Of a stretch of 37,418 bases of DNA, positions 8,251-37,418 are shown piece after piece. The position numbers and the translations under genes were made by a program. Below the pieces are notes generated by a model. That model was not told where the DNA came from. It made no database searches and saw only the letters and a list, made by a program, of their open reading frames with translations. Source of the DNA: a virus (lineage: Duplodnaviria > Heunggongvirae > Uroviricota > Caudoviricetes); the IMG/VR virus record IMGVR_UViG_2695420585_000012; one strand, 5' to 3'. Each line of letters starts with the position of its first letter. Within the stretch, counting starts at the first letter, position 1.

Positions 8251-8304
8251 TTTGTTGTCCTGTAAATTAGGTTCTGGCGCGGAATCCCGCGCCGTTCAGA
8301 TACA

Positions 8305-8820: not shown

Positions 8821-8829
8821 GTTGTCCCC

Positions 8830-10144: not shown

Positions 10145-10720
10145 TCAGGGGGATTCATTACTCTTATTTGCCGGAAATTTTCTATAAATTGTGGAAACAC
10201 CCACATCAAAAATCAGTGCAATACGCTGTCTTGATTCTCCGGCCTCGAGTAAACGCCCAATCTGTGCCCACTGTTCGGTGGTCAACTTAGGACGGCGTCC
10301 ACCTATTCTGCCTTTGGCACGAGCTGCTGCAGCCAGCCCTGCCCTGGTACGTTCAACTATCAGTTCGCGTTCCATTTCAGCCAGGGCACCCATGACATGA
10401 AAAAAGAAACGGCCCATTGGGGTACTGGTATCAATACTGTCAGTCAGGCTTCTGAAATTCACACCACGCTGGCGCAACTCTTCTATCAGCGTAACAAGAT
10501 GCCGCATACTGCGCCCCAACCTGTCCAGCTTCCAGACAACCAGCGTGTCTCCTGCCGATAGTGTCCTGAGTAGTTTTTTCAGCCCCGGTCTGTCGGACTT
10601 AGTGCCACTGATTTTGTCCTCAAAAATCCGCTCACATCCCGCGCAGTTCAGTGCATTACGTTGCAAATCGGTGTTCTGGTCATTTGTTGACACGCGTACA
10701 TAGCCAATAAGCATGATCAT
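10145..10720 (-). CDS. Serine DNA invertase (Hin/Gin/Pin/Cin family)
   Basis: 191-aa ORF; N-terminal resolvase catalytic region (GYVRVSTNDQ) and C-terminal HTH; adjacent to an inverted-repeat-bounded fibre segment. Confidence 0.85.
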   Translation of the reverse strand: MIMLIGYVRVSTNDQNTDLQRNALNCAGCERIFEDKISGTKSDRPGLKKLLRTLSAGDTLVVWKLDRLGRSMRHLVTLIEELRQRGVNFRSLTDSIDTSTPMGRFFFHVMGALAEMERELIVERTRAGLAAAARAKGRIGGRRPKLTTEQWAQIGRLLEAGESRQRIALIFDVGVSTIYRKFPANKSNESP

Positions 10721-10781
10721 CCCCCTGAATAAAAACCGGAGATGATGCCAGTTAGCTGTTACCTCTGCATTTTCTTAAACG

Positions 10782-10803
10782 TTGGTTTGGGAGAAGCGGC
10801 AAA
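10782..10803. repeat. Left inverted repeat / gix-like crossover site of the invertible segment
   Basis: 22-bp perfect inverted repeat with 12288-12309; lies within a hix/gix-like sequence TTCTTAAACGTTGGTTTGGGAGAA. Confidence 0.7.
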
Positions 10804-11128
10804 AATGTCTGCCGCTGCACTTGTCATTAACGGTAATACGTTGACAGCAAAAATCCCGGTAGTTATTAACGGCGTTAACAGGGAGTTTATTATTCAGGCA
10901 TCTCAGATATCCAGCTCAGCAAGCAATGGTGTTATTACCTTCCCATCCGCATTTCCAAATGCGTGTATTGCGATTTTTGCGCATGACTTTGCGACAGCGT
11001 CTACGGATTTATCGAATGTTCGGTTCTATATGCCAGGAAGAACATCAGCATCATGGACAGGGCAAAATATGAGTACAGGTAGTGAATCATCACCTGCAGC
11101 ATGGTGTTGGCTGGCAATTGGCTGGTAA
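10804..11128 (+). CDS. Promoterless alternative tail-fibre C-terminal module (Sv'-like), currently in the silent orientation
   Basis: Plus-strand ORF reading through the left repeat in the same codon phase (GLGEAAK) as H reads through the right repeat; inversion would fuse it to the constant part of H. Confidence 0.6.
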
Positions 11129-11548
11129 ATGGAGAAAACAATGAAGTATTTTACATCTGCTCCGGTTGCTCTTTATAACTCCGATATATCCTCTTATATA
11201 CCCGGTGACGCAGTAGAAATCAGTGATGAAGTATATAACGCACTTATTGCTGGTCAGGAGGCAGGAAAGAATATTACGGCAGACAGTAACGGACTGCCTG
11301 TACTGGCAGAACCCGCACAACCAACTCATGATGAATTGGTTGCAGCATCTGAATTAATGAAACAGCATCTGATTGATGCTGCTATGGCTTCCATCAGTCT
11401 GATTCAACTGAAATTGCAGGCCGGACGTAAATTGACGCAGGCAGAAACAACCCGGCTTAACGCTGTGCTGGATTACATTGACGCAGTGACGGCAACAGAT
11501 ACCAGCACCGCGCCGGATGTCATCTGGCCTGAACTGCCGGAGGCGTAG
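11129..11548 (+). CDS. Tail fibre assembly chaperone for the alternative fibre (Tfa')
   Basis: 139-aa ORF inside the invertible segment; convergent with and overlapping the 3' end of the G-like gene; same domain layout as the G-like protein. Confidence 0.75.
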   Translation: MEKTMKYFTSAPVALYNSDISSYIPGDAVEISDEVYNALIAGQEAGKNITADSNGLPVLAEPAQPTHDELVAASELMKQHLIDAAMASISLIQLKLQAGRKLTQAETTRLNAVLDYIDAVTATDTSTAPDVIWPELPEA

Positions 11549-11939
11549 GCCATTCAATATCTGGCGCACCGGAAGTATCGACCAGTTCCAGTGCGTCCAG
11601 GTAATCCAGCCACAAATTATATTGTGCCAGTTCCTCACCTTTCAGCCGGCCAATAGCCGCTTTACCAGGCCATTGTTTACTGTTCATATAATCGTTGGCC
11701 TGTTCAATAAGTATATTTTTCATTCCCTCCGCTTCAGCTATTTCCTGTTCATGTGTCTTCGCTGGATATTCAGTAAGTACAGGGTAGTTATCCGGGCTAT
11801 TGATAATAATTTTCCCCGTACTCTGACCATTCATAAGTTCATAATAAAGAGCATCTTCAATATCGAAAGCATCATCGGGAATATCGCTGTTGTTTTCAGA
11901 GAAAAATCCCTGAACAGATGGGGACCATTTCATTTTCAT
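11520..11939 (-). CDS. G: Tail fibre assembly chaperone gpG
   Basis: 139-aa ORF directly downstream of H with overlapping stop/start. Confidence 0.8.
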   Translation of the reverse strand: MKMKWSPSVQGFFSENNSDIPDDAFDIEDALYYELMNGQSTGKIIINSPDNYPVLTEYPAKTHEQEIAEAEGMKNILIEQANDYMNSKQWPGKAAIGRLKGEELAQYNLWLDYLDALELVDTSGAPDIEWPTPPAVQAR

Positions 11940-13357
11940 AATTTCCCAATTCCTAAAATATGGACATCATCAGCCTTACGGGCATTCCAGGTGACAGTTA
12001 CATCGGTAGAGTTATGATTAACTGAGATTGCGTATGCTTCGTTAGTCGCGCCAGAAACTTTTGTGGCAAACACAGCAAACAGGACACCAAATGACTGGGG
12101 CCATTTATAGCCTGACAGCTGATAATTACCATTATCCAGTGTTACAGCTTTGACTGCTGCACTTGATGGAATCTTCAGCCACTGGAGTATCAACCCTCCT
12201 GGCAAAAGTTGTTTTCCATAAAAATCCCTCACACCACTAAATGAAACCATATCCGGTATCTGATTTTCCCCTGTTCCCACCCCCCGTTTTGCCGCTTCTC
12301 CCAAACCAAGGTATGCGAGAAGACCAGCTACATCCTTTCCACTCAAATTGGTAAGCGTATTGTCCAGCGGTTGTTTACCTGCCAGCGCATTAAGCATTGT
12401 CGTGGCAAAGTTCGGATCATTCCCCAGTGCCGCCGCCAGTTCGTTCAGTGTATCCAGTGCAGCAGGTGCAGAACCCACCATTCCTGCAATCGCCGATTTC
12501 ACAAAAGCCGTAGTGGCAATCTGTGTATTGTTGACCGACTGCGCCGCCGTGGGGGCTGTTGGCGTTCCGGTGAGTGCCGGACTCGACAACGGTGCTTTTA
12601 GTGCCAGCGCATTGTTAATGGTGGTACTGAAATTCGGATCATTGTTAATGGCTGCGGCTATTTCTTTCAGCGTGTCCAGCGTGGCTGGCGCACCATTAAT
12701 AAGGGCCGTCAGTGCCGCCTGTACAAACGCAGTGGTCGCAACCTGCGTGGTATTATTCCCCGCCGCTGGCGTTGGCGCTTTGGGGGTTCCGGTAAATGTC
12801 GGGCTGGCTTTTGGCGCGTACTGTGAATGCGGGTCCGGTGCGGCAAGATGTTTTGCCATCTGATCATCCGCGTACACCTTCAGCTCCAGTGCCTTGTCAT
12901 CCACATACTTGCGGGTTGCCAGCACTACAGCAGGGTCGATTTTCAGGGTGATATTGTCCGTGCTGCTGGTAATCAGCACCATGCGCACGGTCTGAGTGCG
13001 CCCGCTACCTTCAGCCAGTTGCGGCTTATAGCTTTCCGGGCAGTTGCCCACGGCAATCAATGCCCCGGACTCATCAAACAAGCCCACTTCACGTATCCAC
13101 CAACCGCCCTCGTTTTCAGGGATCACCTGTTCGGCAATAATCTGGCTGCTGTTCTGCGGGTCGATATAAAGCATATTCAGCGCAGCCCGGCGTTTCTCAT
13201 TTACCAGTGCCGTCTGCTTTGCGTCCGGCGTTGGCAATACTCCACCGCCATCGCCCACCGCCATATGGGTAATTTTTAGCGGCACACCGAGCGCGGCGGC
13301 GCTGGCAAGTTTCGCCGCGCCAATATCCGTCAGCAGGGTATAAAATTTTGTGCTCAT
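11936..13357 (-). CDS. H: Tail fibre protein gpH (current 'on' orientation)
   Basis: 473-aa ORF with P2 gpH-like N-terminus (MSTKFYTLLTDIGAAKL); C-terminal 116 aa encoded inside the invertible segment. Confidence 0.85.
   Translation of the reverse strand: MSTKFYTLLTDIGAAKLASAAALGVPLKITHMAVGDGGGVLPTPDAKQTALVNEKRRAALNMLYIDPQNSSQIIAEQVIPENEGGWWIREVGLFDESGALIAVGNCPESYKPQLAEGSGRTQTVRMVLITSSTDNITLKIDPAVVLATRKYVDDKALELKVYADDQMAKHLAAPDPHSQYAPKASPTFTGTPKAPTPAAGNNTTQVATTAFVQAALTALINGAPATLDTLKEIAAAINNDPNFSTTINNALALKAPLSSPALTGTPTAPTAAQSVNNTQIATTAFVKSAIAGMVGSAPAALDTLNELAAALGNDPNFATTMLNALAGKQPLDNTLTNLSGKDVAGLLAYLGLGEAAKRGVGTGENQIPDMVSFSGVRDFYGKQLLPGGLILQWLKIPSSAAVKAVTLDNGNYQLSGYKWPQSFGVLFAVFATKVSGATNEAYAISVNHNSTDVTVTWNARKADDVHILGIGKL
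12288..12309. repeat. Right inverted repeat / crossover site of the invertible segment (inside H)
   Basis: Reverse complement of 10782-10803; encodes GLGEAAK of H. Confidence 0.7.
12368..12808 (-). repeat. Tandem duplication (2 x ~73 codons) within the tail-fibre shaft
   Basis: H residues ~184-256 and ~257-330 repeat (…TGTPxAPTxA…NxTQxATTAFV…APAxLDTL…NDPNFxTT…NALAxK…). Confidence 0.6.
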
Positions 13358-21799: not shown

Positions 21800-23566
21800 A
21801 TGAACACCACACTGACACCCGCAGATCTCGATCCCCGTCGGCAGGCCATGCTGCTGTACTTTCAGGGATACCGCGTAGCCCGCATTGCTGAAATGCTGGG
21901 CGAGAAAGTTGCAACCGTTCACAGCTGGAAAAAACGCGACAAGTGGGGTGACTATGGGCCGCTGGATCAGATGCAGCTCACCACCGCCGCACGCTACTGC
22001 CAGCTCATTATGAAGGAGCACAAAGAAGGGAAAGATTTCAAAGAGATTGACCTGCTGGCGCGCCAGTCGGAGCGCCACGCGCGGATCGGCAAGTTTAACA
22101 ATGGCGGCAACGAAGCCGACTTAAACCCTAACGTCGCCAACCGCAACAAAGGCCCGCGCCGTCAGCCGGAAAAGAATGTTTTCACCGATGAGCAGATTGA
22201 GAAGCTGGAAGAAATCTTCCATTCCTCCATGTTCAACTACCAGCGCCACTGGTGGGAAGCCGGAAAAGCCAACCGCATCCGCAACCTGCTGAAGTCACGC
22301 CAGATCGGCGCGACCTTTTACTTTGCCCGTGAAGCCCTGATTGACGCCCTGCTTACCGGACGTAACCAGATTTTCCTTTCCGCCAGTAAGGCACAGGCCC
22401 ACGTCTTTAAACAGTACATCATCGACTTCGCCAAAGAAGTGGAGGTGGAGCTGAAAGGCGATCCGATGGTGCTTCCCAACGGGGCCACTCTTTACTTCCT
22501 CGGCACCAATGCCCGCACGGCCCAGAGTTACCACGGCAACCTGTATCTGGATGAATATTTCTGGATACCGAAATTCCAGGAGCTGCGCAAAGTGGCTTCC
22601 GGTATGGCTATTCACAAAAAATGGCGACAAACCTATTTTTCCACGCCATCCAGCCTGACCCACAGTGCTTATCCGTTCTGGTCCGGTGCGCTGTTCAACC
22701 GTGGACGCAACAAAGCCGACAAGGTGGACATCGACCTGTCCCATAGCAATCTGGCCCCCGGCCTGCTGTGCGCAGACGGGCAATACCGCCAGATAGTCAC
22801 CGTGGAAGATGCGGTGCGCGGCGGCTGTAACCTGTTCGACCTTGACCAGTTGCGCATGGAGTACAGCCCGGACGAATACCAGAACCTGCTGATGTGCGAG
22901 TTCGTGGACGATCTCGCGTCCGTGTTCCCGCTCAGCGAGCTGCAGGCGTGCATGGTGGACAGCTGGGAAGTCTGGACCGACTTTCATGCTCTGGCCCTGC
23001 GCCCGTTTGGCTGGCGCGAAGTGTGGATCGGTTATGACCCGGCAAAAGGTACGCAGAACGGCGACAGCGCCGGATGCGTGGTGGTGGCACCGCCAGCCGT
23101 GCCGGGCGGTAAGTTTCGCATTCTTGAGCGTCACCAGTGGCGCGGGATGGACTTCCGCGCCCAGGCTGACGCAATCAAAAAACTGACCGAGCAGTACAAC
23201 GTGACCTACATCGGCATCGACTCAACCGGCGTTGGTCACGGGGTTTACGAGAACGTGAAAGCGTTCTTTCCTGCCGTCCGGGAGTTTGTCTACAACCCCA
23301 ACGTTAAAAACGCCCTGGTACTCAAGGCCTACGACATTATCAGCCACCGCCGTCTGGAGTTTGACGCCGGACATACCGACATTGCGCAGTCATTCATGGC
23401 AATCCGTCGCGCCACCACCGCCAGCGGCAACCGCCCGACCTATGAAGCCAGCCGCAGCGAAGAAGCCAGCCATGCCGATCTGGCCTGGGCAACAATGCAC
23501 GCACTGTTTAACGAACCGCTGCAGGGCGAGTCCGCCAATACCAGCAATATTGTGGAGATTTTTTGA
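21800..23566 (+). CDS. P: Terminase large (ATPase) subunit gpP
   Basis: 588-aa ORF, P2 gpP-like; divergent from O and overlapping Q start. Confidence 0.9.
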   Translation: MNTTLTPADLDPRRQAMLLYFQGYRVARIAEMLGEKVATVHSWKKRDKWGDYGPLDQMQLTTAARYCQLIMKEHKEGKDFKEIDLLARQSERHARIGKFNNGGNEADLNPNVANRNKGPRRQPEKNVFTDEQIEKLEEIFHSSMFNYQRHWWEAGKANRIRNLLKSRQIGATFYFAREALIDALLTGRNQIFLSASKAQAHVFKQYIIDFAKEVEVELKGDPMVLPNGATLYFLGTNARTAQSYHGNLYLDEYFWIPKFQELRKVASGMAIHKKWRQTYFSTPSSLTHSAYPFWSGALFNRGRNKADKVDIDLSHSNLAPGLLCADGQYRQIVTVEDAVRGGCNLFDLDQLRMEYSPDEYQNLLMCEFVDDLASVFPLSELQACMVDSWEVWTDFHALALRPFGWREVWIGYDPAKGTQNGDSAGCVVVAPPAVPGGKFRILERHQWRGMDFRAQADAIKKLTEQYNVTYIGIDSTGVGHGVYENVKAFFPAVREFVYNPNVKNALVLKAYDIISHRRLEFDAGHTDIAQSFMAIRRATTASGNRPTYEASRSEEASHADLAWATMHALFNEPLQGESANTSNIVEIF

Positions 23567-24603
23567 TGGGAAAGAGTAAGAAAAACCGCGCTGCGGCGAC
23601 GAATCAGATCCAGTATAAAAAACAAACTTCAGCCGAAGCATTCAGCTTCGGTGATCCCGTTCCTGTTCTGGACCGCCGCGAATTACTGGACTATGTGGAA
23701 TGCGTACAGATGGACCGCTGGTACGAGCCACCCGTAAGTTTTGACGGACTGGCGCGAACATTCCGCGCCGCCGTACACCACAGTTCACCAATTGCAGTGA
23801 AATGCAACATTCTGACCAGTACCTACATCCCTCACCCGCTGCTCAGCCAGCAGGCTTTTTCACGTTTTGTGCAGGACTATCTGGTATTTGGTAACGCCTA
23901 CCTGGAGAAACGCACGAACCGCTTCGGTGAAGTTATCGCCCTTGAACCTGCCCTGGCAAAATACACCCGACGCGGATTAGACCTGGATACCTACTGGTTT
24001 GTGCAATACGGCATGACCACGCAACCGTATCAGTTCACGAAAGGCAGCATTTTTCACCTGATGGAACCGGACATCAACCAGGAGATCTACGGCCTGCCCG
24101 GTTATCTTTCTGCCATTCCGTCAGCCCTGCTCAACGAGTCCGCCACGCTGTTCCGCCGAAAGTATTACATTAACGGCAGTCATGCTGGCTTCATCATGTA
24201 CATGACCGATGCTGCGCAGAACCAGGAGGATGTGAACAACCTCCGCAACGCAATGAAAAGCGCCAAAGGTCCAGGCAACTTCCGCAACCTGTTTATGTAC
24301 TCACCTAACGGCAAAAAGGATGGTCTTCAGATTATCCCGTTGTCAGAAGTCGCGGCAAAGGATGAATTTCTGAACATCAAAAATGTTAGTCGCGATGACA
24401 TGATGGCCGCGCATCGTGTTCCGCCACAGATGATGGGGATTATGCCGAATAATGTTGGGGGTTTTGGGGATGTGGAGAAGGCTAGTCTTGTATTTGTTCG
24501 CAATGAATTGATGCCACTACAGAAGCGACTACATGAACTAAACGAATGGGTGGGTGCAGAAGTAATACATTTTGATGACTATGTTTTAGGTGTTCAGGAA
24601 TAA
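23563..24603 (+). CDS. Q: Portal protein gpQ
   Basis: 346-aa ORF, P2 gpQ-like. Confidence 0.9.
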   Translation: MMGKSKKNRAAATNQIQYKKQTSAEAFSFGDPVPVLDRRELLDYVECVQMDRWYEPPVSFDGLARTFRAAVHHSSPIAVKCNILTSTYIPHPLLSQQAFSRFVQDYLVFGNAYLEKRTNRFGEVIALEPALAKYTRRGLDLDTYWFVQYGMTTQPYQFTKGSIFHLMEPDINQEIYGLPGYLSAIPSALLNESATLFRRKYYINGSHAGFIMYMTDAAQNQEDVNNLRNAMKSAKGPGNFRNLFMYSPNGKKDGLQIIPLSEVAAKDEFLNIKNVSRDDMMAAHRVPPQMMGIMPNNVGGFGDVEKASLVFVRNELMPLQKRLHELNEWVGAEVIHFDDYVLGVQE

Positions 24604-24606
24604 AAG

Positions 24607-24632
24607 AAAAGGCGCTAATCTCAGCGCCTTTT
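24607..24632. terminator. Bidirectional rho-independent terminator between Q and the convergent cargo operon
   Basis: AAAA-GGCGCT-aatctc-AGCGCC-TTTT: perfect 6-bp stem flanked by an A-tract and a T-tract. Confidence 0.6.
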
Positions 24633-24649
24633 ATCTAACTAACCATATA

Positions 24650-24988
24650 TTAACAAACAGCGTATAAACCATCAAATCCAACGGAATGAACCTTTTTTGA
24701 TGCTACTTCATTGCTACGGCGTTGGATCACTTTTGCAATACTTTTTAAAATTGAAGGGGATGCATTGCGAACCTTAACCTGACTCAAAACTTTGGTTACA
24801 CCGAATTTCACTACCAAAACACCAAAGATTTCATCAGAGTATGATTCTGAAATTGAATAAACACCGCTCAGGTCTAAATCTACGGTATACCCTTCTTTAA
24901 TGAACCCTTCAATCTTGTGTCGTTGGGGGATAGCCTGATTGCGCGAAGCCAGGTCACCCTCGGGTAACTTGTATGCGATTTTGTTCAT
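24650..24988 (-). CDS. STAS-like (anti-sigma-factor-antagonist-like) small protein, cargo
   Basis: 112-aa ORF whose start overlaps the stop of the upstream ATPase gene; central DLSGV...SISESYSDEIFGVL segment resembles STAS/DUF4325-type domains (recalled, not searched). Confidence 0.45.
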   Translation of the reverse strand: MNKIAYKLPEGDLASRNQAIPQRHKIEGFIKEGYTVDLDLSGVYSISESYSDEIFGVLVVKFGVTKVLSQVKVRNASPSILKSIAKVIQRRSNEVASKKVHSVGFDGLYAVC

Positions 24989-25962
24989 TACTCTCCTCCT
25001 AACGCCCGCATTATTTCCATAAGCTGAGGGTCATTTTCTTCGCTATCTTTATCGACTGCCAGTTCATGAATCTTAAAACGGCAAGAAATTGCTACACCCG
25101 GCCATTCAGTACGTAATTCAGTATAGCTCACTTCATCACCTATTGCTTCTAAGCATACATTTCCTGAAGCCAGTTGCAATTCCCCATTATATGTTTTTAT
25201 CAATTTCATCAAGTGATATAACCCAAGCCCTTGATGATTATTATCTTTTTCTTTGACCGAAACCCCGTGACCAAACACACTACCCCCAATAAAATCCTGG
25301 GGAAGTTGCTGTGCCCAATCATCCTGCAAATCAGCATGCTTAGATGAATGTCCCTCTTGAATACACCATGCGATCGCATCCTGGTGAGTCTCAATTCCGG
25401 GTATACCAGCTCGCCGCAATTCTCGGAGAAATCCTAACCCACAGTCCGCCAAAGAAAATTCTAAATAGTGCTCTTTTCTTTGTGTGTGGGGTACAGCCGA
25501 ACGTTGTGCAAAAGAAAAACCCGTTGATTTTCCATGCGACCAAACGTTATCGTGAAGCTCACCTATAACATGTGTTAGATCTGTAAGTCCCTTGGGATAA
25601 TCTCTCGGATCACGATCAGGGAATGTTAACTGCCTTACACAACTGTTAATACTACCAGTGGCAACGTCAACAGCTTCAACATTGGTTAATGCTGTAACCA
25701 AACTGTAATTTCTCCCAACATTTACACGTTCCTGTTGATACTGATCCTCGCCCCATAAAGCACCATGTAAATTGATAGCTCGCATATAGTCAGGGCATGA
25801 CAAAACGCAGTTATCTTCGGTAATTTTGTGATGATTCACGTAAGCTGCTAAGACAGTGATAAAACCAGGATGCCAATGGTTGTTTGGCAATTGCAATTCA
25901 TTAGTTTCCTTTTGATGAAACGCAGCGGTATGCACAATAGCGTCTTTTAATCCTAACCCCAT
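24988..25962 (-). CDS. GHKL/Bergerat-fold ATPase (histidine-kinase-like, RsbW/SpoIIAB-type) with N-terminal extension, cargo
   Basis: Visible N-box ELHDNVWSH, G1 box DCGLG and G2 box GLGLYHL; lower GC than structural genes. Confidence 0.6.
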   Translation of the reverse strand: MGLGLKDAIVHTAAFHQKETNELQLPNNHWHPGFITVLAAYVNHHKITEDNCVLSCPDYMRAINLHGALWGEDQYQQERVNVGRNYSLVTALTNVEAVDVATGSINSCVRQLTFPDRDPRDYPKGLTDLTHVIGELHDNVWSHGKSTGFSFAQRSAVPHTQRKEHYLEFSLADCGLGFLRELRRAGIPGIETHQDAIAWCIQEGHSSKHADLQDDWAQQLPQDFIGGSVFGHGVSVKEKDNNHQGLGLYHLMKLIKTYNGELQLASGNVCLEAIGDEVSYTELRTEWPGVAISCRFKIHELAVDKDSEENDPQLMEIMRALGGE

Positions 25963-25991
25963 GAACCGAACCTTTTTTATGCATTTTTCTT

Positions 25992-26020
25992 ATCATATAA
26001 CTTAGGACTGATCAGCGCAA
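25992..26020 (-). promoter_or_regulatory. Possible sigma70 promoter for the ATPase/STAS operon
   Basis: On the minus strand TTGCGC, 17-nt spacer, TATGAT, about 30 bp upstream of the ATPase start. Confidence 0.3.
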
Positions 26021-26075
26021 AGATCCCGACACTCTTGAATCATACTAAATTAAGGCATATACCACACAGCGCGCG

Positions 26076-26094
26076 CTCGTATCCCCGCCACGCC
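26076..26094 (-). other. cos: Candidate cos site (cohesive-end sequence)
   Basis: Minus strand reads GGCGTGGCGGGGATACGAG followed by CGCGCGCTG, closely matching the recalled P2/186 ends (GGCGAGGCGGGGAAAGCAC followed by TGCGCGCTG). Confidence 0.35.
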
Positions 26095-26294
26095 TGCCCA
26101 CTTTATGTAGTGGTTTTCATGCACCTGCATGACATAAGCAAAAGCACGCCAGTTCTGGCTGGCATCAGCGAAAACGATCGTCATACTATCATGCGATCTC
26201 ATGCGCCATATGAAGTTTTCCTGACACAGCCTTGGGTTGGGATAACACCTAACTCAGGAAGATTTTTTGTGTGTTTGTAACCCACACCTAGAGT

Positions 26295-27464
26295 TTACCA
26301 ATCCATGTTTGCGGCATTATCCATCTCACGAGTTAAGTAATTAACAAATAAGTCCATATTCCTTTCTGATTTCATCGCCTCCGCATAGGTTCCATTAGTT
26401 ACGTAAGATAGTATTAAAGGACATCCAGATTCAATATAAATTTTTGCTGGGGACAGTTCTCCCTGCCACAAATTTTCAAGAAAATCGTTAATTAATTGCA
26501 TTGCTTCAGGTGCCAAAAAATGCACACCATTTCCAAACTTGAAACGTTCTTTATTTTCTCGATGAGGCAGCAATAGTGGCACAGCCCCTACACTTGAGTG
26601 AAATTCCAATGCTTGCCCATCCTTACCGAAGGCGCCATGGGCTACAAAATTACGCACCTGTTTTCTGAGTATAAGTAAACGATCATAGAACAATTTTAGA
26701 CTGGAAGAGTTAATATCAATGGCTAATTTGAATTTCTCCCCCCATTCTTTTCCAACTTTATCAGCCACATCATTCCCATTTTTTATCTCACCCTTCAAGA
26801 TTGCAATAAGAATGAAAACATGCTCGGTCCAATTGAAAAATGACTCAATTGCAGACGTTGCTAACCACATAGCCTCTCTTCGGAGTTCAATTATCTTATT
26901 TGATTGTTCAAAAGTGGATTGTAACAGGCTGAAAAAATTATCAGACTTAAACTCACTATCAACTTCCAGTTTAGACTCTTGGCCAGCAGCAACTTCATCA
27001 AGCTTCTGTTTATATAGCTCTAAAAAATAGCAAAACCTATCATAAAGAGAATTAGCATTGTTATTAACATTTAGATTTGAAGTCTTTGCTGCATTGTCTG
27101 CAAGCGAGTCAAAAAAATTCGTAGCAGCTTTAACCCCTGCGCAAATATGTCTCAAAACAGTTTTAGCTTGCTCTATATCATCATCACTCTTGATAAATAT
27201 ATCTAAACCAAGTTTACGATGTTCTATAATTACGACAGTCCCATCAATCCGGACTGGGATAGAAAAAGAAATCTTCTCATCAACCCCACGATTTTTAAAT
27301 TTCAGTAAATCTACCAAAAGAAAATAAACGAGATAATACGGAGGTAATGAGTCTCCCAAACCCGAGCGCTTACCCCAAAAATATTCATCAAGCTCGGCAG
27401 ACTCCATTGTCCCTATGACTCTTCGGACGCGTTCTTCAACTTTAGCCAGATCCATTCCCCACAC
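26295..27464 (-). CDS. Hypothetical cargo protein with HEPN-like RNxxxH motif (possible Abi-type RNase)
   Basis: 389-aa AT-rich ORF between the SOS-regulated small gene and cos; motif ILRKQVRNFVAHG. Confidence 0.55.
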   Translation of the reverse strand: MWGMDLAKVEERVRRVIGTMESAELDEYFWGKRSGLGDSLPPYYLVYFLLVDLLKFKNRGVDEKISFSIPVRIDGTVVIIEHRKLGLDIFIKSDDDIEQAKTVLRHICAGVKAATNFFDSLADNAAKTSNLNVNNNANSLYDRFCYFLELYKQKLDEVAAGQESKLEVDSEFKSDNFFSLLQSTFEQSNKIIELRREAMWLATSAIESFFNWTEHVFILIAILKGEIKNGNDVADKVGKEWGEKFKLAIDINSSSLKLFYDRLLILRKQVRNFVAHGAFGKDGQALEFHSSVGAVPLLLPHRENKERFKFGNGVHFLAPEAMQLINDFLENLWQGELSPAKIYIESGCPLILSYVTNGTYAEAMKSERNMDLFVNYLTREMDNAANMDW

Positions 27465-27625: not shown

Positions 27626-27814
27626 CTAACCGAGAAGATCCATTACACGGTTATATTCATGGGCACGAATTTTCGCCATCAACTCATCAGTCAGCTCTGA
27701 AACCCACTGCAGAGCCAGCCCCTTCTCTTCATCACTACACTCACTAGCCGCTACAAGCTTAAGAAAAAAATCAATGCGCTGGAGCTTCAAAGACTCCAAA
27801 AAATAGTCCTGCAT
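27626..27814 (-). CDS. Small SOS-regulated protein, possible Tum-like antirepressor
   Basis: 62-aa ORF from the internal ATG with GGAGG Shine-Dalgarno; LexA box in the promoter; the 96-aa track ORF would begin upstream of the operator. Confidence 0.5.
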   Translation of the reverse strand: MQDYFLESLKLQRIDFFLKLVAASECSDEEKGLALQWVSELTDELMAKIRAHEYNRVMDLLG

Positions 27815-27856
27815 TTTTCCTCCTATGACACCACAAGCAATACTGTATGCATAACC

Positions 27857-27872
27857 ACTGTTTATATTTACA
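27857..27872 (-). promoter_or_regulatory. LexA box (SOS operator) overlapping a putative promoter
   Basis: CTGT-TTATATTT-ACAG matches CTGT-N8-ACAG with AT-rich spacer; minus strand has TTTACA, 17 nt, TACTGT around it. Confidence 0.6.
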
Positions 27873-27967
27873 GTATATAATAATCTTACTGATGTAAAAC
27901 GTTTTTTTACGTTCATCAGCCTGATATGCCTGGTATTATTAAGAGCACGAATTGTTAATCCGCGTAA

Positions 27968-30382
27968 TTAATACAGGTTCCGCCACTTATCATCTTCCCA
28001 CAAACGCTGGTTCCGATAGAAGATACGCAAGCCTGCTCCTGACGGAATACTGCCGCCGCGAAGGAGTAAATCGACCTCTTTCTCGCTGCCATCAAATCCT
28101 CTGGACTTCAGCTCATAGACGAGCTGCAGTCGCTGATGGTCTGTAATTCGCTGTTTGTAGTCTTTACGCCGTTTCGGTTTAACCAGGCGTAACCTTGCTG
28201 CCAGTTCCCGGCGCTCTTTTTTGCTCATACTGTGCAGGTAATCGTGCAACTCCTTGTCATCCATGCGGGTAATGTCCGTTCTGGTGTCCCCATCAGCTGA
28301 TTTATCTTTCTCCTGTTGGTTCAAATTTTCAGCAAGGGGACAGTTATTGCCACGAGTCCAAGGGGCGCAAGCGCCCTGGTCGGCTGCCGCCTCCTGAACG
28401 TCAACGGCTTTACGAACCATTTTCCACTTCACTGCATGAGTGCAGATCTTGCCCTCTGCAATGGGTGACCAGATGCCATAAATACGAATGCCGTGATCGC
28501 CATAGGCGGTCGGCTCTTCGTTGATTTCATAAGCGGTTCTGATGAGGTGATATTTACGGGGAACCAGTACGCCGCCCTGCTTCATGATGTAGGTGGCAAA
28601 ACAACCAGCATCAGCAGCAGCCAGAATGGCATCAAGACGCGGGTTATCCAGTACCGGCACACCTGCTTTTTTGTCACCCTGTTGCCTTGCCGCCTGACCA
28701 GCCAGCAAGCGAAGTTCACGGTAAGCCTGACGCCCCGGAATACCAAAGAAGCGGAATTGCTGAACACGATGCAGAGACGCCCAGGCATTCACGTATTCAG
28801 CGTTATCACGCAGAGATTTACCCGTTTCCTTGCTGATCTCGCCAGCCAGACCACGACCGTCAATGTTCTTACTGATATATTTCGCGATGTAGCTTGTCGG
28901 CGTTCCTTTGCGCGGGTTAATCAACTCAGACTTAAAGCGCGGCCCAGTGTTATTGCCCAGCTCCTCGCGGTCTTCACGGATGGCAAACTTACGCAGTAAT
29001 GCAGTGATGGCACGGCGGTCTTTTTTGCGCATGAAACACAACAGGTGCCAGTGAACTGTGCCATCATGATGCGGCTCAGCCACCCGCACGCCATACCAGC
29101 GCAACCCGGCTTTGTGCATCGCCTTACGAAATGCAGCAAACATGCCGACCAGATAATCGCTGCTTTGTCTTACCGTCGCGTTTGTCCAGGTCGGGTTTGG
29201 TCTGCCGTTATTTAGCGTGGAATGGAAACGCGACGGACAGGTGATAGTGTAGAAAACGGCGCAGTCACCGCGCATTTCCGCGATAAGCTCCAGACCTTTA
29301 ACACAGGCCATCATCTCATTGCGGCGATGCGCAGGGTTGCTGCTGCTGGCGTTTACCACATCCTCCATGTCCAGCGTGTCGCCGTCTTCGTGCACCAGTT
29401 CATGAGAACGGAAAAACTCCAGCGACTTACGGCGCTGCTCACGTTTATGCATCACGGCTTCATAGCTGACATAAGGAGATGCTTTTTTGCTGACCAGGCA
29501 AACAGCGCGCAACTGCTCTTCCCGCCATTCGCAACGCATCTTCCATAATTTCCGATACCACCAGTCGGCGCACAACATACGCGCCAGCGAACCCGGAATG
29601 AGTTCATAGGGCACGGGTTTACGGCGGTTTCTTTTCCGACGGAGTTGCTCAAACGCAGGTGGGATGACATCCAGACGCAGGGTTTCCGCTGCCACCTTTT
29701 CCCATGTCTTGCGGATTTCTTCTGGCTTAACGTCATCGGTGGCATACAAATCACCACAAGCTGCATCAAGGCACATACTCATATGCGCAGCTACCAGGGT
29801 GGACAGGCGTTTCACCTGATCCTGACTCATTTCAGGCAGGATCAGCAGGCCGTCCAGCCCTTCATGGCTTGCCATAAAGCGAAAAGATGCAGATAGCTGA
29901 CTGTCGCGTACATGCTCCAGTCGTTCCAGACATGGCTTAATCGTCTCACGTAAATAGCGGGAATAAGCCTTTGGCCTGCCCAGGCTGCTGAAGTATTCAA
30001 TACGTTGCATCAGCGGCTTGCTGATATGGGAAGGCTGGGCGTTGACGTCCGCCAGAATGACCATGTCTGAATTAAAACGCTGCTGCTCATGCGCCAGCTT
30101 TGCCCGGCTAATGAGCTTATCCTGCTCCATTTCGCGCTGGACAGGATCACGTGATTCATTAAAGAAATAACGCTCCCAGACCTGATCACTCAGTGCCTCG
30201 CGGCGCAACTGTTCCTGCTCGTTATCGGCAGCGTACAGAGTGATCAGGTTTGAAAGCGTAGAAACCGGCGCAACTTCCGCCGGGTCCAGATAAGGGTTAA
30301 TGGCCTTTTTCGGGCTGTTCCATGAGAATGCTGCGGCAGCCTCGTTAAAGCCGCAGCAGTTGTTCATATCGGCATGACTCAT
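27968..30382 (-). CDS. A: Replication initiation protein gpA (rolling-circle nickase)
   Basis: 804-aa ORF, P2 gpA-like size and early-operon position. Confidence 0.85.
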
Positions 30383-31236
30383 GCACGTACTCCGTACACG
30401 GCAGAACTATCCACGCCACGCGAATAATCAAATCCCATCCAGCAGCGCGGCCCGGAAACAGCAATGATTTCTGTTGCTGATTTACCCTCGCCAGCTGCCA
30501 CACCGATGCTGCGTTTTACCTTGATATAGTGGTGAGTAAAATTGCGATACAGCGAACGGATCAGGGATGTGTCACTGTTAGAAACAATGACCGGATGTCC
30601 TTCTGATGACCGATGTTCAAGAACGGATGCCAGGTGATACTGGTCATCTTCAGTGAAACCATCAGTGTGATAGCCGGAAAACGTACCGTCATATGGCGGA
30701 TCGCAATACACCACATCTCCCGCCTTCAACATCGCCAGCGTTTCATCAAAGCTGGCGCAGATAAACGTTGCTCGCTGGGCTTTTTCTGCAAATGTGCGAA
30801 GTTCTTTTTCAGGGAAATACGGATTTTTATAATTACCGTAGGGAATGTTGAAATGCCCGCTCTTGTTATAGCGACATAAACCACGGTAACCGTGACGATT
30901 GAGATACAGGAAATATACCGCTTTCATGAAATCAGTAATTTCAGTTGAGCAGTTAAACTCCTGCCTTATGTTGTAATAAGCCACCTCCCTGTTTGCGATC
31001 TCAAATAAAACTCTGGCGCGAGATATAAACGATTCACAATCAGCGGCAACCTTTTTATAGAGGTTGATTAAATCAGGATTAATATCCGCAACCAGATAGC
31101 TGGGATAATCCGTTTCCATCATCACAGCACAGGAACCCGCGAAAGGTTCAACCAGTCGCGGGCCAGCAGGAAGGTATTTTTTCAGTTCTGGCATAATGGC
31201 GGTTTTATTTCCCGCCCATTTCAGGATGGTGCTCAT
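30379..31236 (-). CDS. DNA adenine methyltransferase (Dam-like)
   Basis: Motifs LKWAGNK near the N-terminus and DPPY; start placed at [11 protein letters not shown] overlapping the upstream stop. Confidence 0.85.
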
Positions 31237-31460
31237 ACAGCACCTCCGTTGTAATGTTTGCCTTTCAGTTCTGCGATTTCCTGACAGGTAATGCAAAGCT
31301 GCACACCCGGAATGGCGCGGCGTCGTGCTGGCGGAATTGGAGCTTCACACTCAATGCAAAGCACACGAGACACGCCCGGTGTTTTGGCACGGGCAGCACG
31401 GATATGGCGCTGGCGTTCTTCTTCAACGCGCTGCTGTACGAGATCCATTGCATCAGCCAT
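31233..31460 (-). CDS. TraR/DksA-family C4 zinc-finger protein
   Basis: 75-aa ORF with CIECEAP...CITCQ (CxxC-x17-CxxC). Confidence 0.75.
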   Translation of the reverse strand: MADAMDLVQQRVEEERQRHIRAARAKTPGVSRVLCIECEAPIPPARRRAIPGVQLCITCQEIAELKGKHYNGGAV

Positions 31461-33125: not shown

Positions 33126-34082
33126 ATGTCAACACACAAAATCACATTTCGCCATGTTGATGATGCAATGAAAACTGTAATCATGCAGAATCGTGGAGGA
33201 CAACAGGTCATTGACCGAATTTTGAAAGCTTATGGCTTCACTTCACGTCAAGCATTCTGTAACCACTTAGGGATATCCCAAAGCACAATGGCGAACAGAT
33301 ATGCTCGTGATACCTTCCCTGCCGACTGGGTCATAATCTGCAGCATGGAAACTGGCGTGTCGGTTGAATGGTTGGCATTTGGTACCGATAACACAGTAGA
33401 GGCTGTCACACATAATACAGAACAGAACCACCATAAAGATGGTAAGGAGATTCATTCTCTCACTTTAGACACAAAATCCCCAAATGAGAACAATACTCAC
33501 CGAAAGAACGAGAGCCTCATTGAGGTTAATCAAGGAGGAAAAGCGGCAATCGAGCGAATAGTTATCGCCTATGGATTTAAGACAAGGCAAGCTCTAGCGG
33601 ATCACATTGGTGTTTCAAAAAGCACATTAGCCAATCGTTACATGAGAGATACCTTTCCAGCTGATTGGATCATCCAGTGCGCACTTGAAACCGGAGCTTC
33701 ATTAATGTGGCTAACAACCGGTAATGGTCCTGTCTTTGAAGACGCTAAGAGCGATATTATTGCTATCACACGGAAAAAAGTTATAAATGGTATGTTGTTT
33801 GATACAAATTATCTCCCTTTTGATAAAACCATGTTACCCAGCAAGGTGAAAAAACCCATATCTATAGTAGATGAAGGAAATGTATATCTTGCAGACAAAG
33901 CATTTGATGAAGTAACCGATGGAAAATGGTTAGTTGAAATCGAAGGAAAATTTAGTGTTAGAGATCTAACCAGAATTCCAATTGCAAAAGTAAAAGTATC
34001 TAATGAAAGTACAACTTTTGAATGTCTATTAGCGGATATTAATGTAATAGCAAAATGTTTTGGTATATATAAGGATATTTAA
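33126..34082 (+). CDS. CI-like immunity repressor with duplicated N-terminal domain
   Basis: 318-aa ORF; two ~62-aa repeats each with an AYGF...ANRY.RDTFPADW...ETG...WL.G pattern, ~58% identical to each other, then a C-terminal domain; resemblance to 186 CI is from memory. Confidence 0.7.
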   Translation: MSTHKITFRHVDDAMKTVIMQNRGGQQVIDRILKAYGFTSRQAFCNHLGISQSTMANRYARDTFPADWVIICSMETGVSVEWLAFGTDNTVEAVTHNTEQNHHKDGKEIHSLTLDTKSPNENNTHRKNESLIEVNQGGKAAIERIVIAYGFKTRQALADHIGVSKSTLANRYMRDTFPADWIIQCALETGASLMWLTTGNGPVFEDAKSDIIAITRKKVINGMLFDTNYLPFDKTMLPSKVKKPISIVDEGNVYLADKAFDEVTDGKWLVEIEGKFSVRDLTRIPIAKVKVSNESTTFECLLADINVIAKCFGIYKDI

Positions 34083-34865
34083 ATGACAGACCTTCCTAAC
34101 AATGAAGAGATGCTTCTTTATGCCAAAAGGAACCTTGAGTTTTTCATTAAAACATTCTACTTACACTTTTATTCTGACATTGAGTTATTGCAAGCCCCAG
34201 CTCAACCTGAAACAGAAGAACAACGACTGAAACGCTTAATATCCGAAAAAGAGAGTTTCTTTCAATCTGGCTTGGTAATACTTTTTAATTCTGCTGAAAT
34301 ATATCTAAAGTCTATAATTGCTGAGCATAGTGTTTATTTACTTTTAAAAGAAGTAAAAGACTGCTATAAAAACAAATCTTTTTTCGAATGTTCAACATTA
34401 GACGCAACCGAACTACATAGAATAGCACAAAGTATCAGTGGGCGAAATCTTTCACCGCGCTTTAATGAAATTTATGATATTTTGCGCAAAGAAAGAAATA
34501 AAGTAATTCACTTAGGTAAAAGTAATAATAAAGAAATACGTAAAGACTTTTTAAGTGCATTTCTAATTTTTCGAGAGGAGATATATCAAGAGCCTCTTAA
34601 TAACCTGGTTCATTGCTTGATAAATGATAAAAACATGCCTGAACAAAAATTAGTCGAGGCAAAGAAAAACTATGCAGCAAGCATTATAGACATGATGAAA
34701 ATATTTTTTCCTTTAGATGATATTTTAGCCAACATATATAAGATTGATGGAAAACCGAAAAATTGGAATGTTTGTACTAATTGTCAAACTCCGGGGAAAA
34801 CACTCGCCGTCATATCTAAAACTAAATCAATTTGCTTATCATGTGATTTTAAAATAGGATTGTAA
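34083..34865 (+). CDS. Hypothetical cargo protein with HEPN-like RNxxxH motif and C-terminal CxxC...CxxC ribbon
   Basis: 260-aa AT-rich ORF starting immediately after the repressor stop; motif ILRKERNKVIHLG; C-terminal CTNCQ...CLSCD. Confidence 0.55.
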   Translation: MTDLPNNEEMLLYAKRNLEFFIKTFYLHFYSDIELLQAPAQPETEEQRLKRLISEKESFFQSGLVILFNSAEIYLKSIIAEHSVYLLLKEVKDCYKNKSFFECSTLDATELHRIAQSISGRNLSPRFNEIYDILRKERNKVIHLGKSNNKEIRKDFLSAFLIFREEIYQEPLNNLVHCLINDKNMPEQKLVEAKKNYAASIIDMMKIFFPLDDILANIYKIDGKPKNWNVCTNCQTPGKTLAVISKTKSICLSCDFKIGL

Positions 34866-34867
34866 AC

Positions 34868-35938
34868 ATGGAAAACTTAAAATACATACCTTTTAATCAA
34901 GTAGATTTTTCTGATGTTTTTTTTGACTCTTTAAAATCCGATTATGCTCATGGGTTTATTGATTGGTTCCATTCTAAATGTAAATCAAATGATTATGCAT
35001 ATGTCCTTTATGATGAACAAAATAAAATTGATGGTTTTTTGTATCTAAAAACAGAAGTAGGTATCATTGAAGATACAAAACCAAATATTCCTGATGGTAT
35101 TCATCTAAAAGTTGGAACATTTAAATTTAATCCAAAAGGAACTCTTCGTGGTCAACGATTTTTAAAAAAAATATTCGATCACGCTCTAGATAATAATGCT
35201 AACAATATATATGTGACTGTTTTTGAAAAACATGACTACTTAATTAGACTATTCAAAATCTATGGCTTTATAGATATTGGAGTAAAAGAATCTGAAAATG
35301 GTGTAGAGCGAGTACTAATAAAAGAAATGAATAGTAATGCTCTTACGGGCGATATACTGTCAGATTATCCATTTATTAATAACAGAGGCAGTGAAAATAA
35401 ATTCTTGCTTTCAATATACCCCGTATTTCATACTCGTTTATTCCCTGACTCAAAATTAATTACAGAGTCACCAGACGTTGTTGCTGATGTATCATATGCA
35501 AATAGCATTAGAAAAGTATATATTTGTGGCATGTCAGATGTTGAATTAATGAAGCCAAACGATATAATCGTTATATACCGAACATCCGATAATCAAGGGC
35601 CTGCATATTACCGTTCTGTTGCTACTTCTTTATGTGTAGTAGAAAAAGTTAGAAATATAAACTCTTTCGTTACAGAGAAAGAATTTCTAAATTACTGTTC
35701 TAGATATTCTGTTTTTACAGAATCTGAGCTTAAAAGTTTTTATAGAACAAAAAAATACCCATATATTATAAGCTTTACATATAACCTTGCTTTGCCCAAA
35801 AGACTAAATCGTGCTAAACTTATTTCTGAAGTAGGATTATCCCCGCGAGCTTACTGGGGGATCATGAAGTTAACAAACGAACAGTTTAATAGCATTATTA
35901 AACTTGGTGGCGTCAATGAAAGTATTATTGTCAATTAA
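34868..35938 (+). CDS. Hypothetical cargo protein, possible GNAT-like N-terminal domain
   Basis: 356-aa AT-rich ORF 2 nt after the preceding stop; segment GTFKFNPKGTLRGQRFLKKIFDHAL...YGFIDIG loosely resembles a GNAT acetyl-CoA-binding region; C-terminal half unassigned. Confidence 0.45.
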   Translation: MENLKYIPFNQVDFSDVFFDSLKSDYAHGFIDWFHSKCKSNDYAYVLYDEQNKIDGFLYLKTEVGIIEDTKPNIPDGIHLKVGTFKFNPKGTLRGQRFLKKIFDHALDNNANNIYVTVFEKHDYLIRLFKIYGFIDIGVKESENGVERVLIKEMNSNALTGDILSDYPFINNRGSENKFLLSIYPVFHTRLFPDSKLITESPDVVADVSYANSIRKVYICGMSDVELMKPNDIIVIYRTSDNQGPAYYRSVATSLCVVEKVRNINSFVTEKEFLNYCSRYSVFTESELKSFYRTKKYPYIISFTYNLALPKRLNRAKLISEVGLSPRAYWGIMKLTNEQFNSIIKLGGVNESIIVN

Positions 35939-36365: not shown

Positions 36366-37418
36366 ATGGCAGTACGAAAACTCACCACAGGAAAATGGCT
36401 TTGCGAATGTTACCCCGCCGGACGCAGTGGGCGTCGTGTGCGTAAACAATTCGCCACCAAAGGCGAAGCACTGGCTTTTGAGCGCCACACGATGGAAGAA
36501 ACCGAAGCAAAGCCCTGGCTGGGTGAATCAGTGGATCGTCGAACACTGAAAGACGTGGTTGAGCTATGGTTCAAACTACATGGTAAATCTCTGACAGCTG
36601 GGCAGCATGTCTATGACAAATTGCTGTTGATGGTTGACGCTCTGGGCAATCCTCTTGCAACCGATCTCACCTCTAAAATGTTTGCCCACTATCGAGATAA
36701 ACGCCTGACAGGCGAGATCTACTTCAGCGAGAAATGGAAGAAAGGAGCAAGCCCGGTCACCATTAACCTGGAGCAAAGCTATCTAAGTAGTGTTTTTAGC
36801 GAACTATCCCGTCTGGGCGAATGGTCGTATCCGAACCCACTGGAGAACATGCGAAAATTCACCATCGCAGAAAAAGAGATGGCATGGCTTACCCATGAGC
36901 AGATTGTTGAATTGCTGGCTGATTGCAAACGTCAGGACCCAATTCTGGCACTGGTAGTTAAGATATGCTTAAGCACAGGCGCACGCTGGCGTGAAGCCGT
37001 AAATCTTACCCGCTCACAGGTGACCAAATACCGAATTACCTTTGTCAGAACGAAGGGGAAGAAAAACAGAAGCATCCCTATCAGTAAAGAGCTTTACGAA
37101 GAGATCATGGCGCTTGATGGGTTCAATTTCTTCACAGACTGCTATTTTCAATTTTTATCCGTGATGGAAAAAACGTCTATCGTGCTCCCTCGCGGTCAAC
37201 TCACACACGTTCTGCGCCATACGTTTGCGGCGCACTTCATGATGTCGGGTGGAAACATTCTGGCCTTACAAAAAATTCTCGGACACCACGATATAAAAAT
37301 GACTATGCGTTACGCACATCTGGCACCGGATCATCTAGAAACGGCGCTCCGTTTCAATCCTCTGGCAACGCTGCCAAGTGGCGACAAAGTGGCGGCAGCG
37401 GTTGGCATTACCCCGTAA
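36366..37418 (+). CDS. int: Tyrosine integrase (P2 Int family)
   Basis: 350-aa ORF with conserved C-terminal R...HxxR...Y catalytic region (LSTGARWREA, HVLRHTFAAHF, RYAHL); stop codon is the last 3 nt of the window. Confidence 0.9.
   Translation: MAVRKLTTGKWLCECYPAGRSGRRVRKQFATKGEALAFERHTMEETEAKPWLGESVDRRTLKDVVELWFKLHGKSLTAGQHVYDKLLLMVDALGNPLATDLTSKMFAHYRDKRLTGEIYFSEKWKKGASPVTINLEQSYLSSVFSELSRLGEWSYPNPLENMRKFTIAEKEMAWLTHEQIVELLADCKRQDPILALVVKICLSTGARWREAVNLTRSQVTKYRITFVRTKGKKNRSIPISKELYEEIMALDGFNFFTDCYFQFLSVMEKTSIVLPRGQLTHVLRHTFAAHFMMSGGNILALQKILGHHDIKMTMRYAHLAPDHLETALRFNPLATLPSGDKVAAAVGITP

Follow-up and report, generated by a model that had tools for sequence, protein, structure and literature searches.

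The stretch of DNA analyzed here, called the window below, is the 37,418-nucleotide IMG/VR record IMGVR_UViG_2695420585_000012, a P2-like (Peduoviridae) prophage, and coordinates are those of the whole window unless another contig is named. Between its portal gene Q and its putative cohesive end site (cos) lies a cassette of two minus-strand genes. The first codes for a 324-residue protein with a kinase-type GHKL domain and the second for a 112-residue STAS-like protein of the DUF4325 family, hereafter the kinase and the partner (Table 1). Both genes were found where an earlier note, made from the sequence alone, had placed them, and the translational coupling that it claimed is visible in the layout. 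The genes share base 24988, where the minus strand reads GGAGGAGAGTAATGA and the TAA stop of the kinase overlaps the ATG of the partner (TAATG), and a GGAGG Shine-Dalgarno motif for the partner is located within the 3' end of the kinase gene. Kinase/STAS pairs have been tied to bacterial immunity, as the regulator CapKS and as the trigger of the toxin-antitoxin system VapKSC (PMC13373217).

The cassette has borders of its own. On the Q side, the terminator scan found an 11-bp stem (GGCGCT/AGCGCC) with T runs flanking it on both strands, and comparison with the P2 reference makes it the positional counterpart of the P2 terminator tQ. On the other side, the non-coding region upstream of the kinase gene contains two hexamers that we propose as a candidate promoter; they were read by eye, and a consensus promoter scan of this region gave no site at the scan threshold. 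The end coordinate of the earlier note, 26030, falls in this promoter region, short of cos. The cos candidate, GGCGTGGCGGGGATACGAG on the minus strand from 26094 to 26076, equals P2 cosL, GGCGAGGCGGGGAAAGCAC, at 14 of 19 bases, and GCGCGCTG directly adjoins the cohesive-end sequence in the window and in P2 alike. A search of the window with the 19-mer of P2 cos, allowing at most 3 mismatches, gave no match; the site, with 5 mismatches, came from the alignment with relatives and P2. It sits inside 26067-26210, the sole block between Q and gene A that is conserved with P2-like phages of Klebsiella and E. coli. The earlier note was also right that P2 has no gene at this position: in the P2 reference, cosL occupies 1-19, tQ 160-181 and the stop of Q 187, with the terminator alone in between. 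The GC content of the cassette (41.7%, against 56.3% for the structural genes) may be counted as a sign of its foreign origin.

Table 1. Position and supporting evidence of the cassette, its parts and its borders in the window
Feature	Position	Strand	Evidence or detail
Terminase gene P	21800-23566	+	Open reading frame list
Portal gene Q	23563-24603	+	Pfam Phage_portal, E 3e-17
Bidirectional intrinsic terminator, between convergent Q and cassette	24607-24632	both strands	Terminator scan
Partner gene, 112-residue DUF4325 (STAS-like) protein	24650-24988	-	Open reading frame list and Pfam
Ser47-Glu48-Ser49 codons of the partner, candidate phospho-acceptor loop	24842-24850	-	Conservation and alignment to VapS Ser48
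Kinase gene, 324-residue kinase-type GHKL protein	24988-25962	-	Open reading frame list
GHKL (Bergerat-fold) kinase domain, residues 123-300	25063-25596	-	N-box E135/N139, G1 D173-G175-G177, G2 G245-G247
Family-specific insert of ~30 residues, ATP-lid region, residues 209-241	25240-25338	-	Profile alignment against VapK
N-terminal alpha/beta domain of the kinase, residues 1-122	25597-25962	-	
Upstream non-coding region of the kinase gene, 113 bp	25963-26075	-	Candidate promoter TTGCGC-17 nt-TATGAT and AAGG ribosome-binding site
Putative 19-nt cohesive end (cos)	26076-26094	-	GGCGTGGCGGGGATACGAG, alignment with P2 and relatives

The AlphaFold2 model of the kinase has a predicted local distance difference test score (pLDDT) of 84.3 and shows the alpha/beta sandwich of the Bergerat fold, and its best structural matches are anti-sigma factor kinases. 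Two of the three ATP-binding motifs described in the earlier note read as described (E135-x3-N139-x3-H143 and D173-x-G175-x-G177), whereas the third is GLGLYHL, that is GxGxxxL and not GxGxxL. Across 41 kinase homologues, N139, D173, G175, G177, G245 and G247 are invariant and E135 is nearly so. The insert in the ATP-lid region has conserved positions of its own (D214, W216, Q218, P221 and G226), and model confidence is low there (pLDDT 54-64). The N-terminal extension, given as ~110 residues in the earlier note, was modelled confidently as a separate domain of ~120 residues. It is possibly a degenerate STAS-like sensor domain; hhalign found no similarity between it and the partner (E 0.35), nor any detectable one to the N-terminal domain of VapK (E 0.62).

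The kinase belongs to phrog_3364 (E 1.7e-67), annotated as 'unknown function', and at E<=1e-30 its family has ~166 clusters, with lengths of about 300-330 residues throughout. Its homologues are all named 'hypothetical' and have no Pfam domains. Among close relatives, the N-terminal 60 residues are the most variable segment of the protein. Some viral contigs (L093-L097 of IMG/VR, kinase at ~8001-8978) carry a kinase that is 74% identical to that of the window next to a partner that is 94% identical, and the identity of the kinase climbs from 55% over residues 1-60 to 91% over residues 301-324. This gradient may reflect either diversifying selection or fast evolution of the N-terminus, or recombination inside the kinase gene.

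The STAS-like nature of the partner, also claimed in the earlier note, was borne out by Pfam: the protein matches DUF4325 (PF14213) over residues 26-80 with 38.5 bits, above the gathering cutoff of 23 (E 9.3e-10). PF14213 was found in all 61 partner homologues, which carry the name 'STAS-like domain-containing protein'. A bare STAS core (about residues 1-93) makes up most of the partner and is followed by a short non-conserved tail, which is variable or missing in relatives of 93-97 residues; lengths across the family range from 93 to 129 residues. Comparison of 46 distinct partners showed Ser47 in 46 and Ser49 in 45, while the position between them holds Glu in 27 of them, Gly in 6, Asp in 4 and various residues in the rest; L13, R16, R23, D52 and R91 are likewise invariant. 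The release of VapS from its toxin goes through phosphorylation of Ser48, an experimentally supported phosphosite (PMC13373217). We recovered the VapK and VapS sequences from the supplementary model file of that study; VapS is itself a DUF4325 protein (Pfam, E 2.7e-17), and its Ser48 aligns to position 48 of the partner both by hhalign, where the match is weak (E 1.5e-3), and in the Pfam register. The conserved serine loop thus stands where a phosphosite would be expected and is a candidate acceptor.

The scans of the two proteins against other collections gave little. Pfam returned no helix-turn-helix (HTH) match on either protein and NCBIfam no match for either; PADLOC had no significant match for the kinase, and the partner matched its models only in the interior of DrmA. 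In the PDB-sequence profile search, the partner alignment gave only chance matches (nitrosocyanin, ribosomal protein L17) and left the VapS and CapS entries unmatched. The family phrog_5816 (441 residues) matches the partner at its C-terminal end and the kinase, weakly, in its upstream part, which suggests that a fused kinase-partner form exists. As a separate observation, the DrmA match pairs residues 14-96 of the partner with positions 314-397 of the 1750 in the model of this DISARM helicase (E 2e-6), suggesting that some DrmA proteins embed a DUF4325-like domain.

The pairing of the two genes, which the earlier note had described for a single locus, holds across the family. We surveyed 46 loci from species-representative genomes and 64 viral contigs of IMG/VR. 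A DUF4325 gene comes next after the kinase gene on the same strand in 45 of the 46 genome loci, the lone exception being at a contig end, and in all 64 viral contigs. Where the kinase gene is intact, the two are separated by -25 to +41 bases, mostly with a start/stop overlap or a gap of a few bases. Five genome loci (L050, L052, L053, L055 and L056) have a shortened kinase reading frame (139-270 residues in the six-frame set) beside an intact partner, lying more than 300 bases from the partner gene in L053 and L056, as would fit a broken kinase frame in these two, and the five suggest pseudogenization of the kinase. Two other loci, both from MAGs and examined as possible fusions, were not used: L054 appears to be a pseudogene with an internal deletion that is joined to a SWIM-like open reading frame, and L051 is an overlap artefact of open reading frame calling.

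The taxonomic and genetic contexts are diverse. Most genome loci are from Gammaproteobacteria, with some from Betaproteobacteria, Planctomycetota and Magnetococcales. About 45 of the viral contigs are P2-like and read gpA, cos, kinase, partner, Q, P; the identity of their kinases goes down to ~60%, and their portal genes have diverged in step. Elsewhere, the cassette occurs between antiterminator Q and the lysis genes of a Salmonella P22-like prophage, in a Pseudomonas P4-like element (with AlpA and a DUF927 primase), at an integrase-adjacent site in Vibrio and in an Acinetobacter chromosomal islet without phage genes. All-vs-all clustering of the neighbouring open reading frames revealed no conserved third gene. 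The most recurrent neighbours are integrases, recombinases, lysozyme and CI-like repressors; among 120 neighbouring open reading frames the commonest Pfam family is Phage_integrase (8), and PIN, sigma-factor and PP2C families are absent from the 25 commonest. PADLOC matches among the neighbours, in raw counts, include PD-Lambda-1, mad3 and mad8 of MADS, AriA, PDC-S57, AbiLi, ZorD, DpdE and several methyltransferases. In three IMG/VR contigs of ~50 kb (L081, L082 and L084; 9366-9827), the cassette (84% identity) is followed by only a fragment of ~150 residues resembling portal Q (62%), and no terminase, gpA or cos block was detected in them; there, the cassette may have moved into another type of phage along with a piece of Q.

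The earlier note had described the cassette as cargo of a variable region, and the content of the slot in close relatives agrees with this. Relatives that are ~91% identical to the window in Q and A have different contents in the Q-cos slot: an AIPR/Abi-alpha-like gene in NC_049452, a reverse transcriptase and a hypothetical gene in KY271398, and a frameshifted hypothetical gene in CP019275. The entire gpA-gpQ interval has been defined as a defence hotspot in P2 (Rousset et al. 2022, PMC9122126). A near-identical partner (MNKIAYKLPEG...) appears in Table S5 of that study as system 112, labelled 'DUF4325', with 28 occurrences and no function (PMC9122126). We found the cassette in 25 of 5,426 complete E. 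coli genomes, every time in the chromosome.

The Q side of cos is a cargo slot distinct from the old/tin slot, which extends from cos to gene A and is filled in the window by a gene for a 389-residue protein (26295-27464, minus strand). We considered this gene as a third component of the cassette and rejected it: the conserved cos block and a terminator-like hairpin part the two, and the gene is absent in all other contexts of the cassette. Its product has no PADLOC, PHROG or NCBIfam match, and tblastn against 50,697 phage records was negative as well. It has a weak Csx1_HEPN Pfam match (E 0.05) at residues 222-282, a stretch that includes an RNFVAH (Rx4H) HEPN-like motif, and the gene may be an uncharacterized single-gene HEPN RNase defence candidate.

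From the analysis as a whole, we favor the view that the cassette is anti-phage cargo, namely a self-contained kinase/STAS switch expressed from the lysogen, and put the probability of this at roughly 0.55. The window family would then be an effector-less relative of the VapK-VapS and CapK-CapS kind, catalogued without a function both in PHROGs and in the P2 hotspot table. The cassette would be a two-gene 'moron' acquired horizontally into the Q-cos slot; its own terminator, its candidate promoter and the fact that it runs opposite to the late genes agree with expression from the lysogen. It would encode a GHKL serine kinase of the SpoIIAB/VapK type with an extra N-terminal domain, and the DUF4325 protein as the cognate substrate or antagonist, and would act by superinfection exclusion or abortive infection. 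In the resting cell, kinase and partner would be held in an inert complex. The variable N-terminal domain would read an infection cue, which by analogy with CapK and VapK may be single-stranded DNA (ssDNA) or a phage product, and the kinase thus activated would phosphorylate the partner in the Ser47/Ser49 loop, upon which the complex would dissociate. The freed kinase would bind or phosphorylate a target encoded elsewhere, by the host or by the invading phage, through its N-terminal domain and lid insert. The output is most probably on the kinase because the partner has no output domain, be it a tail, a winged helix-turn-helix (wHTH) or a toxin partner. Where partner-switching systems use bare STAS proteins (SpoIIAA, RsbV), the output is on the kinase, and in the window cassette it is the kinase that has additional surfaces, its N-terminal domain and the conserved lid insert. 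Of this scheme, the gene structure, folds, conserved catalytic motifs, obligatory pairing, lack of a conserved third gene, genomic context and homology to VapK and VapS are results of the analysis; phosphorylation of the partner, cue, target and anti-phage effect are inferred.

A more specific version of this mechanism, which we put forward tentatively and would not bet on at even odds, makes the kinase both sensor and effector. Once its fast-evolving N-terminal domain had detected infection, the kinase would escape its bare STAS antagonist and directly phosphorylate or sequester a host or phage protein, such as a transcription or translation factor. Such an output would be distinct from the toxin release of VapKSC and the derepression of CapKS, and would found a 'STAS-GHKL kinase + DUF4325' defence class that includes system 69 of the P4 hotspot, discussed below.

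Several results weigh against a defensive switch, or against parts of it. No effector can be named for the cassette. The Pfam HATPase_c profile gives the kinase 13.7 bits, below its cutoff of 26.4 (E 0.089), so that membership in the GHKL family rests on structure and motifs, and the PDB-sequence profile search with the kinase alignment gave no match. The acceptor serine is uncertain by one position, since the partner position that aligns to VapS Ser48 holds Glu or varies. No DUF4325 entry is among the tested systems in Table S2 of Rousset et al. (PMC9122126), and the family is absent from the PADLOC 2.0 models. Finally, the defence genes around the cassette were counted without a background control, and a mobile-element marker was found in only 15 of the 46 genome loci, using a limited set of marker seeds.

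Much of the same evidence can be read as that of a toxin-antitoxin or addiction module, an explanation that overlaps with ours and fits most of the data. The kinase would be a growth-arresting toxin of the HipA/HipT kind and the STAS protein its pseudo-substrate antitoxin; the primary role of the pair would be to stabilize the mobile element, and any defence would arise secondarily, through loss of the antitoxin once host transcription is switched off. Compact, translationally coupled two-gene cassettes on mobile elements are in line with this, the related VapKSC is a toxin-antitoxin system with a DUF4325 antitoxin (PMC13373217), a HigB/HTH pair lies close by in the Salmonella prophage context, and the five loci with a truncated kinase beside an intact partner are what one expects if the kinase is costly. 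However, a kinase-first order is unusual for type II systems, the kinase of VapKSC is a sensor and not a toxin, and the partner has no DNA-binding domain for autoregulation; on balance we find this unlikely, if worth keeping in mind. Somewhat less probable again is a regulatory or lysogenic-conversion module with no part in defence. Anti-sigma factor kinases are the best structural matches, CapK and CapS are pure regulators activated by DNA damage (PMC13373217), and P2-type prophages hold accessory regulators in this region, such as DinI in relatives of the window. Yet the partner lacks the wHTH of CapS, the terminator and the convergent portal gene downstream leave no operon to control, no neighbour is conserved, and the commonest neighbour families include neither sigma factors nor PP2C phosphatases. 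A dedicated local target is further disfavoured because the cassette moves between unrelated elements and hosts.

We regard counter-defence as very improbable. The pair would interfere with host immunity of the CapK-CapS or VapKSC type, as a decoy substrate or competing kinase, and help the phage or satellite that carries it. Its homology to components of host immune switches and its presence on phages point that way, and one report describes phage hotspots as mixing defence and anti-defence genes (PMC13586616). But the likeness of partner and VapS is one of Pfam family, their direct similarity being as weak as given above, chromosomal islets that lack phage genes contain the cassette too, and terminator, candidate promoter and orientation suit a gene pair used by the lysogen. 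A role as a packaging or structural accessory of P2-like phages has nothing in its favor except the proximity to cos and the portal gene. Here the earlier note had named a conserved packaging component as the alternative, and the comparisons speak against one: P2 has no gene at the site, close relatives hold unrelated genes there, and the same pair is found in P22-like prophages, P4-like elements and the chromosomes of Pseudomonas, Acinetobacter and Vibrio. Spurious open reading frames are excluded by protein conservation down to 33% identity together with invariant catalytic motifs; the best homologues have E-values of 1e-204 (kinase) and 5e-57 (partner), and the pair is present in more than 100 independent loci. 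At the level of sequence comparison, we thus consider both the packaging role and chance reading frames refuted.

The implications depend on whether the cassette defends. To our knowledge, the link between kinase/STAS pairs and immunity dates only from 2026. In the window family, the same two-protein core travels alone, on at least four kinds of mobile elements across Proteobacteria, without a toxin or DNA-binding output. If the cassette is a defence system, its output has to come from the kinase itself or from a trans-acting factor, which would be a new effector logic for this class of modules; a new output mechanism would be likely in that case because the effector is missing. It would also offer a simple setting of two genes in which to study infection sensing by such kinases, and provide a function for PHROG 3364 and for the 'unknown system 112' of the P2 hotspot catalogue.

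Other parts of the prophage merit a brief description. An island of 29-31% GC (34083-35938, plus strand) lies between a 186-type CI repressor (33126-34082) and the integrase (36366-37418); it encodes a 260-residue protein with a weak DUF3644 PADLOC match and a 356-residue protein matching the PADLOC candidate PDC-M11A (E 2e-130), which gives the prophage a third cargo locus. A lower-GC stretch at 10145-12017 contains a Hin/Gin-type serine invertase (Resolvase and HTH_7, E 6e-52) adjoining a C-terminal piece of a tail fibre (Gp53-like_C) and genes for tail-fibre assembly, and resembles an invertible segment for host range of the sort seen in Mu or P1, here on a P2-like phage. Directly upstream of gene A lies the gene of a 305-residue orphan Dam-like DNA methyltransferase (30379-31296, minus strand; PADLOC oMTase, E 2e-110). 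Finally, a 96-residue open reading frame (27626-27916, minus strand) matches PHROG 698 (63 residues) only over residues 35-95, and relatives annotate a 62-residue gene; the real gene is probably a shorter form that starts from an internal Met.

Among characterized systems, the cassette is closest to VapKSC. There, VapK has STAS and GHKL domains and VapS, a STAS domain with a short tail, is the antitoxin of the PIN toxin VapC; the system gives ~2 logs of protection against phage Bas42 (PMC13373217). The gene order is the same, kinase then DUF4325, followed by PIN in the E. coli vapKSC control locus (L124), and so are the approximate sizes (a kinase of ~300 and a partner of ~115 residues). Both kinases lack a DHp histidine domain and have an extra N-terminal domain, both partners belong to PF14213, and both systems are associated with mobile elements and defence islands. 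By hhalign, the window kinase family aligns with VapK and with a 22-member VapK alignment across the linker and the GHKL domain (91% probability, E about 1e-6; residues 58-297 against 87-283), the lid insert being the chief difference in this region. In contrast, none of the ~110 loci of the window family has a PIN/VapC gene, the C-terminal tail by which VapS inhibits VapC is not conserved, the position of VapS Ser48 is Glu or variable between two conserved serines, and the lid insert of ~30 residues is absent from VapK. We also noticed that the E. coli vapKSC locus (L124/L125, 5001-6860) directly adjoins P2/HP1-type tail-fibre and tail genes, and VapKSC itself seems to be located at a prophage edge.

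The likeness to CapK-CapS lies in a GHKL kinase of the anti-sigma type directly followed by a STAS-family substrate with a conserved serine, on defence-associated DNA. CapK, whose activator is ssDNA, combines HTH, STAS and GHKL domains, and CapS (STAS and wHTH) is a repressor released via phosphorylation of Ser54 (Chambers et al., EMBO J 2026, PMC13373217). The window cassette has neither the N-terminal HTH of CapK nor the wHTH of CapS that represses a downstream operon, and what follows it is a terminator and a convergent portal gene. Our literature search found nothing on the window kinase/DUF4325 family beyond this paper. SpoIIAB-SpoIIAA and RsbW-RsbV of Firmicutes and Actinobacteria likewise combine a GHKL kinase without a DHp domain and a single-domain STAS protein. 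However, the window kinase is more than twice as long as SpoIIAB or RsbW, with its N-terminal domain and lid insert, the partner is of the divergent DUF4325 branch, the cassette is found on mobile elements of Proteobacteria, and its commonest neighbour families include no sigma factor or PP2C phosphatase. The partner-switching module evoked in the earlier note stands as far as the kinase/STAS pairing and the fold matches to anti-sigma kinases go; the term stays an analogy because no sigma factor, phosphatase, toxin or DNA-binding domain is attached.

Two comparisons concern the P2/P4 hotspots themselves. The 'HATPase_c | DUF4325' cassette of the P4 hotspot (system 69, Table S1, PMC9122126) also combines a kinase with a 112-residue DUF4325 protein next to cos, on an element of the P2/P4 family, and its kinase has an N-terminal STAS-like region (weak Pfam STAS match, E 0.003). 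It differs by a third gene, for a predicted membrane protein. Between the kinases of the window and of system 69, BLASTP gave no match and hhalign a weak one (E 0.024), whereas VapK and the system 69 kinase match by profile at 88% probability. With the old/tin and gpA-gpQ systems of P2 (Rousset et al. 2022, Vassallo et al. 2022), the cassette shares the hypervariable A-Q interval and the moron-like organization; it differs in lying on the Q side of cos, where P2 has 167 bp, while old/tin lie on the A side, and in its unrelated proteins. Taken together, these sequence relationships indicate a larger clade of kinases with DUF4325 proteins as their partners, within which the window family forms a branch of its own.

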